64,000 nt of DNA, from the sequence record MK524178.1; one strand, given 5' to 3'. The DNA comes from Escherichia phage PHB12. Under the pieces are notes generated by a model. The model had not been told where the DNA came from, did not search any database, and worked only from the letters and a program-made list of their open reading frames with translations. Both the position numbers and the translations under genes were made by a program. Of this stretch, positions 1,035 through 51,039 are shown in pieces. How positions within the stretch are numbered: position 1 is the stretch's first letter; every line of letters begins with the position of its first letter.

Positions 1035-1052
1035 AAGCTCCCGAAGGAGCTT
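1035..1052 (-). terminator. hairpin terminator after gene 39 (UUCG loop)
   Basis: AAGCTCC-cgaa-GGAGCTT on plus; U-rich tract follows on minus strand. Confidence 0.5.
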
Positions 1053-11823: not shown

Positions 11824-11853
11824 CAAAAAAAAAGGAATCCCGAAGGATTCCTT
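11824..11853 (-). terminator. strong rho-independent terminator after soc
   Basis: 9-bp stem AAGGAATCC/GGATTCCTT, loop UUCG, then nine U on minus strand. Confidence 0.7.
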
Positions 11854-17446: not shown

Positions 17447-17452
17447 CCCGAA

Positions 17453-17475
17453 AGGAGACCGAAGTCTCCTTTTTA
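17453..17475. terminator. hairpin after gene 41 (orientation ambiguous)
   Basis: AGGAGAC-cgaa-GTCTCCT followed by TTTTT on plus; on minus followed by UUUCGGGG. Confidence 0.4.
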
Positions 17476-18927: not shown

Positions 18928-19269
18928 TTAAAAGAATTTAAATTTTTTCTTGGTCCGTTCATTAAAAGCTTGTTGTACTTGCATTGTAACACATTTTTCA
19001 ACATGTGGTGCAAGTTCTGCTTTTCTGTCCTGGTCAAGAACTGCAAAGTCCATTACGATTTTACCATCAACCCAGTCTAGTTTTGTAATATAGACTATAT
19101 GATGAGAACCATCTTCAAGTGTAATCAGAATCTCTTGAATGACATTTTCCATTGCTGAACGGATAATTTTAAGAGATTCATTAAACACTCGTTCTTTGCG
19201 AATGTCTTCCCCTTCCGAAGAAGGGGATTCATCAACGATTTCTAGATTTAAATCATCGAGATTATTCAT
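18928..19269 (-). CDS. hypothetical protein at gene 40 position
   Basis: Between 41 and uvsX as T4 gene 40; start moved to MNNLDDL. Confidence 0.4.
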   Translation of the reverse strand: MNNLDDLNLEIVDESPSSEGEDIRKERVFNESLKIIRSAMENVIQEILITLEDGSHHIVYITKLDWVDGKIVMDFAVLDQDRKAELAPHVEKCVTMQVQQAFNERTKKKFKFF

Positions 19270-27122: not shown

Positions 27123-29834
27123 TCAAAAATCGAACATATCGAACAGAGATGCTTTCTTCTCGTAATCGAGTTTCGCTGCTGATGTGAATCCTTCAAGTGG
27201 TTTAATAAATGTCTTCTCAAGGAGAACAGTGTAGTCCATCCAATGAAGTACGTCGTCTTTAATTAAATCTGTGATTTCAGTGCCAGAAGGCCATGCGATA
27301 CATTTATCACCGAATGGGTTTCCTTCACGTAAAGGCAGAACATATACTTTTTCACCTTCTACAACTTGTGGTGCATCGATATTACCTTTGATAGCCCGGT
27401 TATACGTCAGAATTCCACGAATATGGAATGGGCATTTGGGACCAGGGAATCCACCTACGTCATATTTAGCAATGTTATTCGCAGAAGATACCGACGCGAT
27501 GCTAATATAATTCAATTGACGGAATTCTTTTTCAAACTCTTTAAAATATTCTTGTAATGATTCTTCACCTTCTTGAAGCATACGACGAATACATTCTTTA
27601 AGAGCTTTCTGTACTGCTTTAGGAGTCGAAGATTTCTGAGTCTCTAGACCCATGATTTTGAGTTTAGGCTCAGCGTAACGAGTACCTTCCATATCCCACA
27701 CGTTTAATGCATAACGTTTCTTACCAGTCCAGAATCCACCAATACCTTTAGAACCTAATGGAGGCCCAGCGATAGCTTCTCGGTCCATGAACATTAAGTG
27801 TTGTTTATTGTTCATGTATTCACACATTTCACGGAAACCTCTATCAATAGCTGGTTCCATACGTTCACGTGCAAACTTATCTAAGAAGTCTACCCAATGG
27901 TTGGTATCACGGAATTTAGATTCACCAACCTTATCGATAATTTTATCAGCAGATACGTAAATAGAGTCTGTATCACCATAAAGAACGAAAGCTTCACCTT
28001 CTGTACCACAAACTTCATTCAGATATTCATTAACTTTACGTTCAATCCACTGTAAAGCCATTTGACCAAATGTTGTGATTGCAGTAGCATTACGCAAATC
28101 ATAATAACGGAACCAAACGTTTCCAAGTGCACCATAAAGTGAGTTGATAAGCAATTTACGGTTAATTTGAGCAGTCATACCTGCAACTTCAGTACGTTGA
28201 GCTCTAAACAACATTTCATTAAGAGATTTAGCAGACAACTTTTTAATCTTTTCTTTAATCTCATCACTGAAGTCGAAACGATAATCAACATCTAATGGTT
28301 CGTCAACAGAAAGATTAGGATTATGCAATGCCTCTTTAATTATTTCACCATTACGTTGAGCTGCAAGCATGTAACCTTTATGTTCTTTACGTTGATTAAA
28401 GACCTTAGTGATTTCAGTTGGAACTACACCATCACGGTCTTTATAATACATCATGCCGTTAGGAGAGCAACTGTACACATCTGAAGGACGTTCAGCAACA
28501 GCGTTAATATAATCATGCAATGGAGCTACTTTAAACGTTCCTGCTATTGTTTCTGGGCTAATATTCACTTGGCGAATAATACTTGGATACAGAGATGTAA
28601 GGTCGAAACTCATTACATATTTGTATCGATTCGGAATAGGTTCCTTAACAAAAGCGCCGGGATAAGGTTGAACCGGGTGAGAACGACCTTGTGGAATCAC
28701 CTTGTTCTGCTCTTTAAGGCTATTAAAAATAATAGCATCCCATGTTTTAATTGGACTAAACACAGATTGAATCTGTATCTTAGCATAATAACCCATGTCC
28801 AAACTCAAGTTGATGAACTGACGCTTAGCATCAATTTGCAATACACGGTACACGTCGATAATGTTATAAGAAATATATCGTTGGTGATTGCTTTCACGAA
28901 GCTTAGAAATAGGGCCGTCATATTTCAGTTTACCAACGTTCAATTCAAATTCTGAAATGTAATCCAGAGAATATGATGGTTGATTGGTAAAAGAGAATTT
29001 TTTGTAAAGGTCAATGTAATCAAGAACAGAGATACCGAACAATGTAATGATTTCACGAGAACCATACATGTTTTCGATAACTTTAACACGAGTTTTACGA
29101 TGTGGTGATAAACGTTTCGCAGTAGATTCGCCAAAAATATTCTTGATTCGGTTATACACATACGGAATATCAAATGACTCAACGTTCCATCCAGTCAAAA
29201 TGACAGGAGTTTTCTGTTGCCAGAAGTTGAGATATTCCATCAACAATTCTTTTTCGTTATCGAACGGCATATAAATGATTTTATCGATAATTTCAGATGG
29301 AACTTCATCACCACCTTGTTCTTGAAGCTTAGCAGCGATTTCAATAGACCATTCTTCTACATTACCATATGGAGAATTCAATAGATCAAATACATAGAAC
29401 CTGTCGTCAATTGAGTCATAATGGGTGATAGCATCAATCGGATGTTTTGCTTGTGACGGCTCAGGGAACCCATCCGGAGATGTTACTTCGATGTCGAAGT
29501 TAGCCACACGAATTTTTGTATGGTCATATTTGATTTCATAGTTATAAGTGTCAGACAAATACGCCAATTTGAAATCGTCCATGCCAAGTGCTTCAAGTCC
29601 GATATCTTCCATGCGTTTAATCCATTGGGAGGCATCACGCATATTGGCGAACAACTTACGAGTACACGGCTTACCGTAGATATCGAAATATTTCGTAGCC
29701 TGACTTTCTGGGCAATGAGCAAACAGTGATGGTTTATATTCTACTTCACGAGTACGTTCACGGCCATTAGAATCGATGTAACGTTCAAAAATTGAATCAC
29801 CAATCTGTTCAACCGTTAAGTAAAATTCTTTCAT
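27123..29834 (-). CDS. 43: DNA polymerase (family B)
   Basis: 903 aa; MKEFYLTVEQIGDSIFERYIDSNGRERTREV...; exo motifs FDIE and YNIIDV, pol motifs DLTSLYPS and YGDTDS; matches RB69 gp43 from memory. Confidence 0.97.
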   Translation of the reverse strand: MKEFYLTVEQIGDSIFERYIDSNGRERTREVEYKPSLFAHCPESQATKYFDIYGKPCTRKLFANMRDASQWIKRMEDIGLEALGMDDFKLAYLSDTYNYEIKYDHTKIRVANFDIEVTSPDGFPEPSQAKHPIDAITHYDSIDDRFYVFDLLNSPYGNVEEWSIEIAAKLQEQGGDEVPSEIIDKIIYMPFDNEKELLMEYLNFWQQKTPVILTGWNVESFDIPYVYNRIKNIFGESTAKRLSPHRKTRVKVIENMYGSREIITLFGISVLDYIDLYKKFSFTNQPSYSLDYISEFELNVGKLKYDGPISKLRESNHQRYISYNIIDVYRVLQIDAKRQFINLSLDMGYYAKIQIQSVFSPIKTWDAIIFNSLKEQNKVIPQGRSHPVQPYPGAFVKEPIPNRYKYVMSFDLTSLYPSIIRQVNISPETIAGTFKVAPLHDYINAVAERPSDVYSCSPNGMMYYKDRDGVVPTEITKVFNQRKEHKGYMLAAQRNGEIIKEALHNPNLSVDEPLDVDYRFDFSDEIKEKIKKLSAKSLNEMLFRAQRTEVAGMTAQINRKLLINSLYGALGNVWFRYYDLRNATAITTFGQMALQWIERKVNEYLNEVCGTEGEAFVLYGDTDSIYVSADKIIDKVGESKFRDTNHWVDFLDKFARERMEPAIDRGFREMCEYMNNKQHLMFMDREAIAGPPLGSKGIGGFWTGKKRYALNVWDMEGTRYAEPKLKIMGLETQKSSTPKAVQKALKECIRRMLQEGEESLQEYFKEFEKEFRQLNYISIASVSSANNIAKYDVGGFPGPKCPFHIRGILTYNRAIKGNIDAPQVVEGEKVYVLPLREGNPFGDKCIAWPSGTEITDLIKDDVLHWMDYTVLLEKTFIKPLEGFTSAAKLDYEKKASLFDMFDF

Positions 29835-29846
29835 TTAATTTCCTTT

Positions 29847-29862
29847 AGACGAGTTATTGTCT
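29847..29862 (-). promoter_or_regulatory. gene 43 translational operator hairpin (autoregulation site)
   Basis: Minus strand AGAC-AAUAACUC-GUCU immediately 5' of RBS AAGGAAA and ATG; same architecture and loop core as the T4 gp43 operator. Confidence 0.6.
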
Positions 29863-29892
29863 TTTGTTTGTTGATGAACTTATTATACTCCA

Positions 29893-29912
29893 AATGGGAC
29901 CGAAGTCCCATT
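29893..29912 (-). terminator. hairpin after regA (8-bp stem, UUCG loop)
   Basis: AATGGGAC-cgaa-GTCCCATT immediately 3' of regA stop; separates regA from gene 43. Confidence 0.5.
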
Positions 29913-29915
29913 GCT

Positions 29916-30293
29916 TTAATTACCAATTGTATATTTTGCTTTCAAAGTCCAGTCATCTTTCTGTTTAAAAGAGATAACACGGAAGTTATTAGTCAGGCCA
30001 AACAGATCTTCACGAGCAGAGTCTTCAATAACAATCAATCCCCAGTCTTCAAGCAACTGAGCAATCGAATCACGTCGCTGATAGTCTTCACCATCAATAT
30101 CAACCTGACGTCCGTCCATACGCAGCATTTCTTTAAAGTGGACGATGTAATATTTACCTTGCTTTTGGAGGATATGACAAGACTGGTAAAGGACTTTATC
30201 CTTGTTATTAGCGATGCCCATACGGGTCAGAGTCTCTTTGACTTTCAGAAAATCTTCAGGGTTCTTCAATTTAATTTCAATCATTTTTACCAT
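29916..30293 (-). CDS. regA: translational repressor RegA
   Basis: 125 aa; [41 protein letters not shown]... matches T4 RegA. Confidence 0.9.
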
Positions 30294-30871
30294 TCCAATG
30301 CTAATTTTTTAAATTGTTTTTGTTCTTTCACGTTTTTGGTAACTTCTTTGAGAAATTCATCAGTGACCATGGCCTTCAGTTCTTTAAGGACTATCGGCAA
30401 CTTGTTATTTTTTTCAAGGAGCCGCTTATACTCAGTAGCATCGTTCATGTTGATTGTGTAATGTTTCATCAACAGTTTGATAACTAGTAACTCTGAAGTG
30501 TCTTCTACTAGTTTAGCCCATTTAGAGAATCGACGACCACGCGGAATTGCCGCCATCATATAGTTGAAGTGCGCTTCATCACTTAATTCAGAACCGACTA
30601 AGTTCATCATGTAAACAGCTGGCATACATTCTGGGAACTGGGATAATGAGTTCTCAACCATAAATTTTGAGTAGTCGACCTGAGCAATTGACATAGATTT
30701 CTTTTCATTAATAGCATTAATGATTTTAAAGAATTCATTCTCAGGTTTTTCTTTAAACATATCAGCACATTTTTGAATCGCATCAGTGTCATTAGACTTC
30801 CATGCAATTTGGTGCTCGTTAAGCCGGACGTCATCATCGAATAAGTTCATATTATTTCCAAGTAAGTTCAC
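30287..30871 (-). CDS. 62: clamp loader small subunit
   Basis: 194 aa; LNEHQ.AW...[20 protein letters not shown]...KEQKQ.KKLALEW matches T4 gp62. Confidence 0.85.
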
Positions 30872-36521: not shown

Positions 36522-36545
36522 AAAAAAGGAACTCCGAAGAGTTCC
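36522..36545 (-). terminator. rho-independent terminator (GGAACTC-UUCG-GAGTTCC + U6)
   Basis: aaaaaaGGAACTCcgaaGAGTTCC on plus, between small ORF 36545..36718 and gene 47. Confidence 0.65.
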
Positions 36546-36718
36546 TATCCACATAGTACACCGTACAGAGGCTCATTTGAACTTTTAAATCGAATGGGCT
36601 TGTACGTAATAGTTCCTTCGGCTTTAGCTTTATCATAAGACTCTTTAAAACGTCTCATTCTTTCTGCTTTGCCTTTACGGATTTTATCGAAATTTTCAGA
36701 AGTCGGGATGTTCGTCAT
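36545..36718 (-). CDS. small basic ORF (57 aa)
   Basis: Not in track; MTNIPTSENFDKIRKGKAERMRRFKESYDKAKAEG...; terminator hairpin at its 3' end. Confidence 0.3.
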   Translation of the reverse strand: MTNIPTSENFDKIRKGKAERMRRFKESYDKAKAEGTITYKPIRFKSSNEPLYGVLCG

Positions 36719-41274: not shown

Positions 41275-41745
41275 TTAATCATGTTTCCACACCCCATCGG
41301 TATTTGACCAAAGTCGCTGATTATCTGATCCTCGCCACAGTTTTTTGGTCGGAAAATTTTTCTCATACTTCCCATCAATAATAACATCAACATATTTAAG
41401 CATTTCTAGTTGTTTAATATCTTCAAACTTATATCCTGTCCACAACCAAATGCTTTTATTGGGATAAAGATTTTTTACTGTTTGAGCAATGCAATGAACA
41501 ACATCTCTGTTATCAGGATAGAGAGGGTCTCCTCCAGTTATAGTTAATCCTTCTATATAATCATTATTCAAACATTCAATTAATTGTTCTAGCGTTTCAT
41601 CCGTGAATGGAATACCATTTCTAGCATTCCATGTTGATTTATTATAACACCCTTCACATTTATGCAAACAACCTGTAACGAAAAGAACGACCCTGCATCC
41701 AGGGCCATTCACAAAATCGCAGGGATAAAATCTATCATAATTCAT
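41275..41745 (-). CDS. nrdG: anaerobic ribonucleotide reductase activating protein (radical SAM)
   Basis: 156 aa; CLHKCEGC (C-x3-C-x2-C) near N-terminus. Confidence 0.9.
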   Translation of the reverse strand: MNYDRFYPCDFVNGPGCRVVLFVTGCLHKCEGCYNKSTWNARNGIPFTDETLEQLIECLNNDYIEGLTITGGDPLYPDNRDVVHCIAQTVKNLYPNKSIWLWTGYKFEDIKQLEMLKYVDVIIDGKYEKNFPTKKLWRGSDNQRLWSNTDGVWKHD

Positions 41746-43559
41746 TGGTGTTTAACCCTATGCATGATTTCTTTATTTTTACCGAGATTAAATCCGCGTT
41801 CGTTCGGATTTCCAAGATAACCGCATGTTCTTCTTATGGTGTTCATCTTTTTAGGATCAGTTTCTCCACAAACTGAACAAACAAATCCGTTTTCAGTAGG
41901 AGTCATTTCATGGGTACTTCCGCATGTAAAACATTTATCTACTGGCATGTTAACACCAAAATAATCTAAATGTTGCGCAGCATAATCCCATACGGCCTCA
42001 AGTCCTTTTAAGTTATTTTTCATATCAGGAAGTTCAACATAAGAAATGTGTCCGCCGGTCGCAATGAAATGATATGGTGCTTCGCGAGAAATCTTTTCAA
42101 ACGGAGTAATATTTTCTTCTACCGAAACGTGGAAACTATTAGTGTACCAGCCTTTATCAGTAACATCTTTTACACTTCCATATTTCTCAGTATCAAGTTT
42201 ACAGAAGCGATAGCACAGGTTTTCAGCGGGTGTAGAATACAAGCTAAAAGCAAAACCAGTTCTTTCGGTCCACTGCTTAAGACGAGCATTCATTTTAGTT
42301 AAAATTTCTTGTCCAATATCACGACCGACAAGAATATTCAATTCGTGAATACCAATGTATCCTAAGGACACCGAACTTCTACCGTTTTTAAATAACTCAA
42401 TTATATCATCGTCAGGTTTCAGACGAACCCCAAATGCACCTTCTTGGTAAAGAATAGGAGCAACTGTTGCTTTAACTCCTTTTAATGAACTAATTCTACA
42501 CATCAATGCTTCAAAACACAGATCCATTCGTTCATTAAATAGCTCAACAAATTTCTGTTCATTGAATTGTGTTCCAATATAAGAATCTAACGCAATACGA
42601 GGAAGATTCAGTGTTACAACACCAAGATTATTACGTCCATCAAGAATTTCATTACCAGTCGAATCTTTCCATACACTCAAGAAACTACGACAACCCATTG
42701 GAGAAACAGGAATAGATGAACCAGTGATAGCTTTATTGTTCTTAACTGAAATAATATCAGGATACATTCTTTTGCTTGCACACTCTAGAGCAAGCTGCTT
42801 AATATCATAGTTCGGGTCGTCTTTATAAAGATTGACACCCTCTTCAACGAACATAACAAGTTTAGGGAAAATAGGAGTTATTCCATCACGACCAAGGCCT
42901 TTAATGCGGTTTTTAAGAATTGCCTTCTGAATCATTCGTTCAGTCCAATCGGTTCCCGTACCAAATGTAATTGTTACAAAAGGCGTTTGTCCGTTTGAAC
43001 TAAAGAGAGTATTTACTTCATATTCATAAGCTTGGAATGCATCGTATACGTCTTTTTCTGTTTTAGATTGGGCATAATTCAACGCATCAGCGATTTGCCA
43101 TTTTTCTGCATCCTCAATATGTTTTGCATAGGTGCGTTTAACATAAGGAGAAAGTACTTTATCTACATTCGCAAAAGTCGTTCCGCCATATTGATGGGAA
43201 GCGACCTGTGCAGTAATTTGTGCCATAATTGCAGTAGCAACACCGATCGATTTAGGCGTTTCAATTTGAGCATTACCTAGCTTAAATCCGTTCTCAAGCA
43301 TTCCTTTTAAATCTACTAAACAGCAATTAGTAAACGGAAGAGCAGGAGAATAATCAATATCATGGAAATGGATAATTCCGCTTTCATGTGCTTTCATAAT
43401 AAAAGACGGGACCATATTTTTGGCAATGTGCTTAGACACAATACCAGCCATAAGGTCCCGTTGAGTTGGAAAAACACGAGAATCTTTATTAGCATTCTCG
43501 TTCAAAAGATCTTTATTAGTTTTATGAATTAATCCTTCAATTTCTTTTTCAATTTTCAT
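41742..43559 (-). CDS. nrdD: anaerobic ribonucleotide reductase (glycyl radical enzyme), uninterrupted
   Basis: 605 aa; C-terminal Zn cysteines and glycyl-radical motif RTCGYLG; continuous frame, no intron. Confidence 0.95.
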   Translation of the reverse strand: MKIEKEIEGLIHKTNKDLLNENANKDSRVFPTQRDLMAGIVSKHIAKNMVPSFIMKAHESGIIHFHDIDYSPALPFTNCCLVDLKGMLENGFKLGNAQIETPKSIGVATAIMAQITAQVASHQYGGTTFANVDKVLSPYVKRTYAKHIEDAEKWQIADALNYAQSKTEKDVYDAFQAYEYEVNTLFSSNGQTPFVTITFGTGTDWTERMIQKAILKNRIKGLGRDGITPIFPKLVMFVEEGVNLYKDDPNYDIKQLALECASKRMYPDIISVKNNKAITGSSIPVSPMGCRSFLSVWKDSTGNEILDGRNNLGVVTLNLPRIALDSYIGTQFNEQKFVELFNERMDLCFEALMCRISSLKGVKATVAPILYQEGAFGVRLKPDDDIIELFKNGRSSVSLGYIGIHELNILVGRDIGQEILTKMNARLKQWTERTGFAFSLYSTPAENLCYRFCKLDTEKYGSVKDVTDKGWYTNSFHVSVEENITPFEKISREAPYHFIATGGHISYVELPDMKNNLKGLEAVWDYAAQHLDYFGVNMPVDKCFTCGSTHEMTPTENGFVCSVCGETDPKKMNTIRRTCGYLGNPNERGFNLGKNKEIMHRVKHQ

Positions 43560-51021: not shown

Positions 51022-51039
51022 AAGGGCCCGAAGGCCCTT
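51022..51039 (-). terminator. 3' stabilising hairpin after nucleotidyltransferase gene
   Basis: AAGGGCC-cgaa-GGCCCTT; weak U tract on minus strand. Confidence 0.35.

Follow-up and report, generated by a model that had tools for sequence, protein, structure and literature searches.

Background

The operator of phage gene 43 is the classic case of a DNA polymerase that serves as an RNA-binding translational repressor. The first SELEX experiment, by Tuerk and Gold in 1990, reportedly used the T4 gene 43 operator as its target RNA, and the translational operator of RB69 gene 43 is said to have been the subject of work by Wang, Pavlov and Karam in 1997 and by Petrov and Karam in 2002. For RB69 gp43 and its leader RNA, gel shifts, RNase footprints and repression in vivo have reportedly all been obtained. 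RB69 gp43 binds both the RB69 and the T4 operators; T4 gp43 is not known to bind that of RB69.

The following account of the two systems is that of the review by Uzan & Miller (PMC3014915). T4 gp43 is described there as an autogenous translational repressor, with an operator made up of a hairpin and of sequence overlapping the ribosome-binding site. Later RNA-binding work with RB69 gp43 and its own operator was experimental (PMC3014915, citing Wang 1997; Petrov & Karam 2002), and crosslinks form between the RB69 operator RNA and the palm domain of the protein. The hairpin-loop is given as 18 bases in T4 and 16 bases in RB69, and the top part, including the loop, as identical in the two. The loop core, -UAAC-, was also the main outcome of SELEX. 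Autoregulation is missing in some T4 relatives, according to the same passages (PMC3014915). A related paper treats the T4 and RB69 polymerases as RNA-binding autogenous repressors that are unlike in RNA specificity and in target sequence (PMC535899).

How does the gene 43 leader of Escherichia phage PHB12 compare with these systems? Here we describe this leader in a window of 64,000 nucleotides (the whole stretch of sequence record MK524178.1 that was analysed), together with the gene 43 upstream regions of T4, T2, T6, 15 other named phages and 80 IMG/VR loci.

Results and discussion

The leader and the polymerase are those of RB69

By sequence comparison, the window belongs to an RB69-type Mosigvirus. 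In the surrounding region the identity to phage RB69, as to many isolates of Mosigvirus, is 99.8%, and the RB69 annotation has the same gene order, 45-44-62-regA-43. Over 401 bases around the site there is only 1 difference to the record of RB69; it lies outside 29800-29960 and leaves gp43 unchanged. Within 29800-29960 the identity to RB69 (NC_004928) is 100%, the whole spacer included. The gp43 of the window is identical to that of RB69 at 903 of 903 residues and is 62% identical to that of T4.

The spacer between regA and gene 43 is 81 nt long (29835-29915), which coincides exactly with the span flagged in an earlier note on this DNA. In the sense of the mRNA it reads UAA AGC AAUGGGAC-UUCG-GUCCCAUU UGGAGUAUAAUAAGUUCAUCAACAAACAAA AGAC-AAUAACUC-GUCU AAAGGAAAUUAA AUG, from the regA stop codon to the gene 43 start codon. 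The features of the spacer and of the genes on either side are listed in Table 1.

Table 1. Features of the gene 43 leader, its flanking genes and the C(UUCG)G hairpins of the window.
Feature	Position	Strand	Basis and remarks
Gene 43, DNA polymerase gp43, 903 aa	27123..29834	minus	ORF and translation; regulated gene and repressor in one
Gene 43 start codon, AUG	29832..29834	minus	Sequence and translation
Shine-Dalgarno sequence, AAGGA	29841..29845	minus	6 nt 5' of AUG; within the operator's single-stranded 3' portion
Operator hairpin, AGAC-AAUAACUC-GUCU, 4 bp, 8-nt loop	29847..29862	minus	Sequence, fold, covariation, covariance model
GGAGUAUAAU box between the two hairpins	29881..29890	minus	Conserved across genera
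TATAAT, very probable -10 of a homologue in RB69 of T4 middle promoter P43	29886..29881	minus	Homology
GGAG, possible RegB cleavage motif	29890..29887	minus	Motif from review
C(UUCG)G hairpin, AAUGGGAC-UUCG-GUCCCAUU, 8 bp	29893..29912	minus	-11.7 kcal/mol; starts 3 nt after the regA stop
regA stop codon, UAA	29918..29916	minus	Sequence
regA, 125 aa, upstream gene	29916..30293	minus	ORF and translation, RB69 annotation
C(UUCG)G hairpins of the window	1035-1052, 2918-2933, 11832-11853, 17451-17472, 19208-19227, 29893-29912, 36527-36546, 51022-51039	minus	

Anatomy of the operator hairpin

The earlier note had placed a hairpin with an 8-nt loop, AGAC-GUCU, at 29847-29862 beside the gene 43 ribosome-binding site, which is correct to the base, and had likened its loop core to that of the T4 gp43 operator; the T4 loop is AAUAACUC, identical to the one found here. 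The 16-base RB69 hairpin of the review is exactly AGAC-AAUAACUC-GUCU. The statement in the review that the 10 bases at the top are shared by T4 and RB69 is inexact: direct alignment gives nine contiguous identical bases (AAUAACUCG), the 5' closing base being C in RB69 and U in T4. The 3' end of the hairpin is 1 nt from the Shine-Dalgarno sequence and 12 nt from the gene 43 AUG. AAGGA or AGGA is present at the equivalent site in most relatives; it is not present in Gualtarvirus MP1.

The hairpin is the predicted minimum-free-energy fold of its sequence, at -3.2 kcal/mol for the 20 nt taken alone, and 0 of 200 shuffles matched it. As an energy for the RB69 hairpin standing alone, -3.2 kcal/mol is weak. 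In the window the octamer of the loop, AATAACTC, was counted 6 times, with 3.4 expected, and at about 2% of window positions an 8-nt loop could be closed by a stem of 4 bp or more. Neither the hairpin alone nor the loop octamer alone is statistically unusual; the whole motif is. A scan of 29500-30300 against Rfam, with E values up to 10, gave noise matches only and no curated family for the operator.

The gene 43 leader as a whole did not fold significantly better than its shuffles (z -1.6 and -1.2). A long-range pairing of UUCAU (29878..29874) with the start-codon sequence AUGAA was considered and rejected, given the same z values of -1.6 and -1.2 and its loss in Dhakavirus.

A second AATAACTC is present at 42875-42882 on the minus strand, inside an ORF of 605 aa (41742..43559). 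It has five possible flanking pairs, two of which are G.U, and was missed by the covariance model described below. With its location inside an ORF, its two G.U pairs of five and the lack of a model match, it is probably a chance occurrence and was rejected as a second operator.

An invariant loop on a covarying stem

The comparative sequences were chosen by their loop only, and comprise 18 distinct operators from at least nine genera or lineages. Across these the loop positions 1-3 and 5-8 (7 of the 8 loop bases) and the G that follows the loop are invariant. The stem changes between lineages (Table 2), and more stem-loop variants are present among the IMG/VR loci. Of the stem cells in the 18 operators, 87.8% are paired, compared with 60% in shuffles and at most 44% when the register is slid. 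Changes on both sides were found in four of the five stem pairs, and the observed score was reached by 0 of 500 shuffles.

Table 2. Stem and loop of the gene 43 operator in relatives.
Phage or genus	5' arm	Loop	3' arm
T4, T2, T6	AGCCU	AAUAACUC	GGGCU
Dhakavirus	AGAC	AAUCACUC	GUCU
Gaprivervirus	AGUC	AAUCACUC	GACU
Gualtarvirus	AUUCU	AAUAACUC	GGAAU
Karamvirus	AGACC	AAUCACUC	GGUCU
Jiaodavirus	AGACU	AAUAACUC	GGUCU
Marfavirus	AGAC	AAUUACUC	GUCU
Yersinia MHG19	AGUCU	AAUAACUC	GGACU

A covariance model (R1) was made from the 17 distinct operators that are not from RB69, and both strands of the window were scanned with filters off. This model, which contains no RB69 sequence, gave one significant match in the window, at 29844-29865 on the minus strand (30.8 bits, E~5e-6). 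The next-best match in the 64 kb scored 13.7 bits, with an E value of 0.72. Among the 99 related loci the model matched 54, always on the sense strand and just 5' of gene 43.

The hairpin of the window thus fits the Tevenvirinae-type definition, a stem of 4-5 bp with the loop AAU(A/C/U)ACUC followed by G. It has the leader position at the Shine-Dalgarno sequence, the stem-loop, the compensatory changes and the profile recognition of a Tevenvirinae-type operator. An invariant loop carried on a stem that drifts and compensates is, as a pattern of sequence change, the signature of a hairpin bound by a sequence-specific protein.

The lineages that carry the operator have a gp43 N-terminus about 57% or more identical to that of RB69. 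Among the 99 loci it was not found in any with a gp43 N-terminus of about 55% identity or less; the lineages without it are Slopekvirus, Pseudotevenvirus, Krischvirus (RB49-like) and phages of Acinetobacter, Aeromonas and Vibrio, as well as marine phages. Two further loci of the 99, L034 and L058, gave no match to the model.

At the operator site of L034 (IMG/VR UViG_2974736276, 1160-1206) there is AGCC-ACAC-GGCU, followed by a T4-like AUAAACUAAGGAAU. The stem is like that of T4, and a 4-nt loop replaces the 8-nt loop. This element may be a natural operator from which the loop has been deleted.

RB49-like leaders, which do not have the Tevenvirinae-type operator, can form another hairpin, UCUUUC-GUAAGU-GAAGGA, in which the 3' arm is the Shine-Dalgarno sequence. 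This was seen in Escherichia phage kaaroe, of the RB49 species (L017, 671-688), and is the same in L069 and L070. The fold was not significant against shuffles of the RB49-like leader. A -UAAA- loop is mentioned for RB49 in the passages of the review on this subject (PMC3014915).

Within the loop, position 4 is the sole variable base, and it varies by lineage (loci L001-L073). RB69, T4, Jiaodavirus and Gualtarvirus have A there, Dhakavirus, Gaprivervirus and Karamvirus have C, and Marfavirus and several of the IMG/VR phages have U. The natural operators also vary in the length of the stem and in the spacing to the Shine-Dalgarno sequence. It is possible, if on balance unlikely, that this allelic series at position 4 tracks a co-evolving RNA-binding specificity of the polymerase. 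The 'major variant' loop of SELEX, -CAAC-, about which the review raised a question (PMC3014915), was found in 0 of the 54 operator loci.

The box between the hairpins and a probable P43 homologue

Between the two hairpins of the spacer is a GGAGUAUAAU box, which the earlier note left unmentioned and which is kept across most of the lineages that bear the operator. It contains TATAAT. In T4, the start site of the middle promoter P43 is 29933 in T4 coordinates (Hinton 2010, PMC2988021 Table 1). This position falls between the homologous TATAAT, which is 5 nt before it, and the T4 hairpin, which is 4 nt after it. Because the T4 start falls at this distance from the homologous sequence, the TATAAT of the window is very probably the -10 element of the RB69 homologue of P43.

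This is a good -10 element without a -35: no sigma-70 pair of -35 and -10 was called there on the minus strand. In a simple scan for sigma-70 promoters and terminators the counts did not exceed those of shuffles, and there was no call on the sense strand of the spacer. The MotA box of middle promoters, by the criterion used, is (a/t)(a/t)(a/t)TGCTTtA, located 12 +/- 1 bp upstream of the -10. The only candidate seen by eye is ACTTCG, which lies inside the DNA of the upstream hairpin with a spacer of 13 bp to the -10; a centre of ACTT is known at T4 P46 (PMC2988021). Clearer MotA boxes are present in MHG19 (ATTGCTTTA) and in Jiaodavirus (TTTTACTTTA). Reading the DNA of the UUCG loop (GCTT/ACTT) as a P43 MotA box would give a spacing that is 2 bp too long in T4, and relatives have GAAA or UACG in the place of UUCG on a stem that is kept.

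The box also contains GGAG. This is the motif of RegB, and processing by RegB stimulates gp43 synthesis in T4, as stated in the review's passages on RegB (PMC3014915). GGAG is not universal in the box, with the variants GUAG, AGAG and GGGG present in relatives, and we take a role of RegB at the RB69 GGAG as a lead only.

In two of the loci the box is closer to the operator: between the end of TATAAT and the operator loop there are only 5 nt in L033 (1155-1185) and 9 nt in L068 (1155-1185). Initiation of the P43 type, 5-7 nt downstream, would therefore take place within the 5' arm of the hairpin, and these phages could have the whole hairpin on read-through transcripts only.

The UUCG hairpin downstream of regA

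The stem of the upstream hairpin covaries in relatives and its tetraloop is swapped among UUCG, UACG, UUAC, GAAA and UCCG. Since the stem is kept while the tetraloop changes, this hairpin is primarily an RNA element. A canonical intrinsic terminator has a GC-rich stem and at least five U. In RB69 the stem of 8 bp has 4 GC, but the sense strand has only three U that overlap it or come after it, so that by this strict test the hairpin is not an intrinsic terminator; the terminator scan called it in the antisense orientation only. In relatives the hairpin is followed by a tract of 5-6 U, and that of MP1 is annotated as a terminator. The RB69 hairpin is probably a partial terminator or a stabiliser of the 3' end.

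The earlier note held that this hairpin closes regA. Its position agrees with that here, but the description does not carry over to relatives that have ORFs inserted after regA. In SHP1, VR20, KMB17 and MHG19 (L003, L005, L009 and L013) one or two small hypothetical ORFs lie between regA and gene 43, and the tetraloop hairpin, the -10 box and the operator are directly upstream of gene 43, apart from regA. The hairpin stays with the gene 43 module.

Eight strong C(UUCG)G hairpins, of 6-9 bp, are present in the window, all on the minus strand (Table 1). The sequence CTTCGG was observed 31 times against 15.7 expected. Intercistronic CUUCGG hairpins have been described for T4, and the eight of the window are consistent with such hairpins.

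An autogenous operator and the alternatives

We consider the hairpin to be the autogenous translational operator of an RB69-type gene 43, with a probability of roughly 0.93. The parts of this reading that are shown here are the sequence itself, its identity to RB69, the covarying hairpin, the invariant loop and the adjacency to the ribosome-binding site. Binding and repression by gp43 are taken second-hand, from passages of one review and from one related paper (PMC3014915, PMC535899). The earlier note had also read the hairpin as a translational operator for gp43, and the reading stands: the leader and the polymerase are identical to those of RB69, the operator has been studied there according to the literature, and the covariation is independent of both.

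Under this reading, gp43 in excess over its DNA substrate would bind its own mRNA at AGAC-AAUAACUC-GUCU and at the adjoining single-stranded A-rich stretch, which carries the Shine-Dalgarno sequence AAGGA and extends to the AUG. Bound gp43 would occlude the ribosome-binding site and block the 30S subunit, and less polymerase would be made. The operator would be present on two kinds of transcript, the read-through mRNA from upstream promoters and a middle-promoter transcript with a short leader. The latter is predicted by homology with T4 P43, with the TATAAT at 29886..29881 as its -10. The upstream C(UUCG)G hairpin would end or stabilise the transcript that contains regA.

Might gene 43 be regulated by RegA instead, or additionally? 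In this case the A/U-rich initiation region (AAAGGAAAUUAAAUG) would be the target. According to the RegA passages of the review (PMC3014915), the sites of RegA lack structure, are A/U-rich and lie close to the AUG; UAA repeats came out of SELEX with RB69 RegA, and this protein protects the stretch between the Shine-Dalgarno sequence and the AUG. In the gene 43 leader there is AAAUUAAAUG, and the neighbouring gene is regA. However, regulation by RegA leaves the conserved hairpin and its loop unexplained, and the targets named in those passages are rIIB, 44, 45 and dexA, with gene 43 not among them (PMC3014915). We regard it as improbable.

Less probable again is that the hairpin is mainly a 5'-proximal stabiliser, protecting the P43 transcript against decay that depends on the 5' end, and not a protein operator. 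In T4 the P43 start is only 4 nt before the hairpin, which makes the hairpin essentially 5'-terminal, and the conserved pairing of the stem would suit such a role. A pure stabiliser, however, has no need of 7 invariant loop bases of 8 and an invariant following G on a stem that drifts. The RB69 hairpin is also about 12 nt or more from the probable start and weak (-3.2 kcal/mol), and specific binding of gp43 to the operator is reported in the gene 43 passages of the review (PMC3014915). That the inverted repeat arose by chance and agrees with the T4 loop by coincidence, as the unenriched octamer, the roughly 2% of positions able to form such hairpins and the second AATAACTC with its five flanking pairs inside an ORF might suggest, is already refuted by the single covariance-model match with RB69 left out of the model, by the position kept in 54 loci and by the covarying stem.

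With the autogenous operator as the preferred reading, what does the comparison add? Operator and polymerase in the window are those of RB69 without change, so the element is already known, and the window has nothing to add to the RB69 operator as published. To find the operator in an RB69-type genome is to re-identify a published element, and therefore brings no new biology. There is a small comparative gain, in the quantitative support from covariation, the map of presence and absence of the operator by lineage, the single variable position of the loop and the conserved order of hairpin, P43 -10 box and operator. This order stays with gene 43 despite the ORFs inserted after regA.

Comparison with known systems

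The closest described system is the RB69 gene 43 operator, which has the same RNA sequence, the same repressor protein and the same 16-nt hairpin with the loop AAUAACUC. No difference was detected in the spacer or in gp43. The comparison with published operators proposed in the earlier note thus gives 100% identity of the spacer to RB69 and a loop shared with T4.

The T4 gene 43 operator belongs to the same gene and has the same position, the same 8-nt loop AAUAACUC and the same following G. In T4, too, an A-rich single-stranded stretch that carries the Shine-Dalgarno sequence comes after the hairpin. The stem is 4 bp in RB69 (AGAC/GUCU) and 5 bp in T4 (AGCCU/GGGCU), with stabilities of -3.2 and -6.3 kcal/mol, respectively. 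The hairpin is 12 nt from the AUG in RB69 whereas it is 18 nt away in T4, and the -10 is separated from the hairpin by 18 nt in RB69 and by 8 nt in T4. The term 'T4-type', used in the earlier note, is therefore apt for the loop and the position but not for the stem length, the distance to the AUG or the reported specificity of the protein.

The T4 spacer between regA and gene 43 has the same box (GGAGTATAAT) and tetraloop hairpin in the same order, and the P43 start has been mapped in T4. Compared with this spacer, RB69 has only ACTTCG as a MotA-box candidate, with its 13-bp spacer, and three U after the hairpin.

The leader of T4 gene 32 likewise involves a replication protein that represses its own translation beside the ribosome-binding site (PMC3014915). 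The gene 32 operator, in the review's account, is a pseudoknot with an A/U-rich tract, bound cooperatively and non-specifically, whereas for gene 43 the same passages give no evidence of a pseudoknot (PMC3014915).
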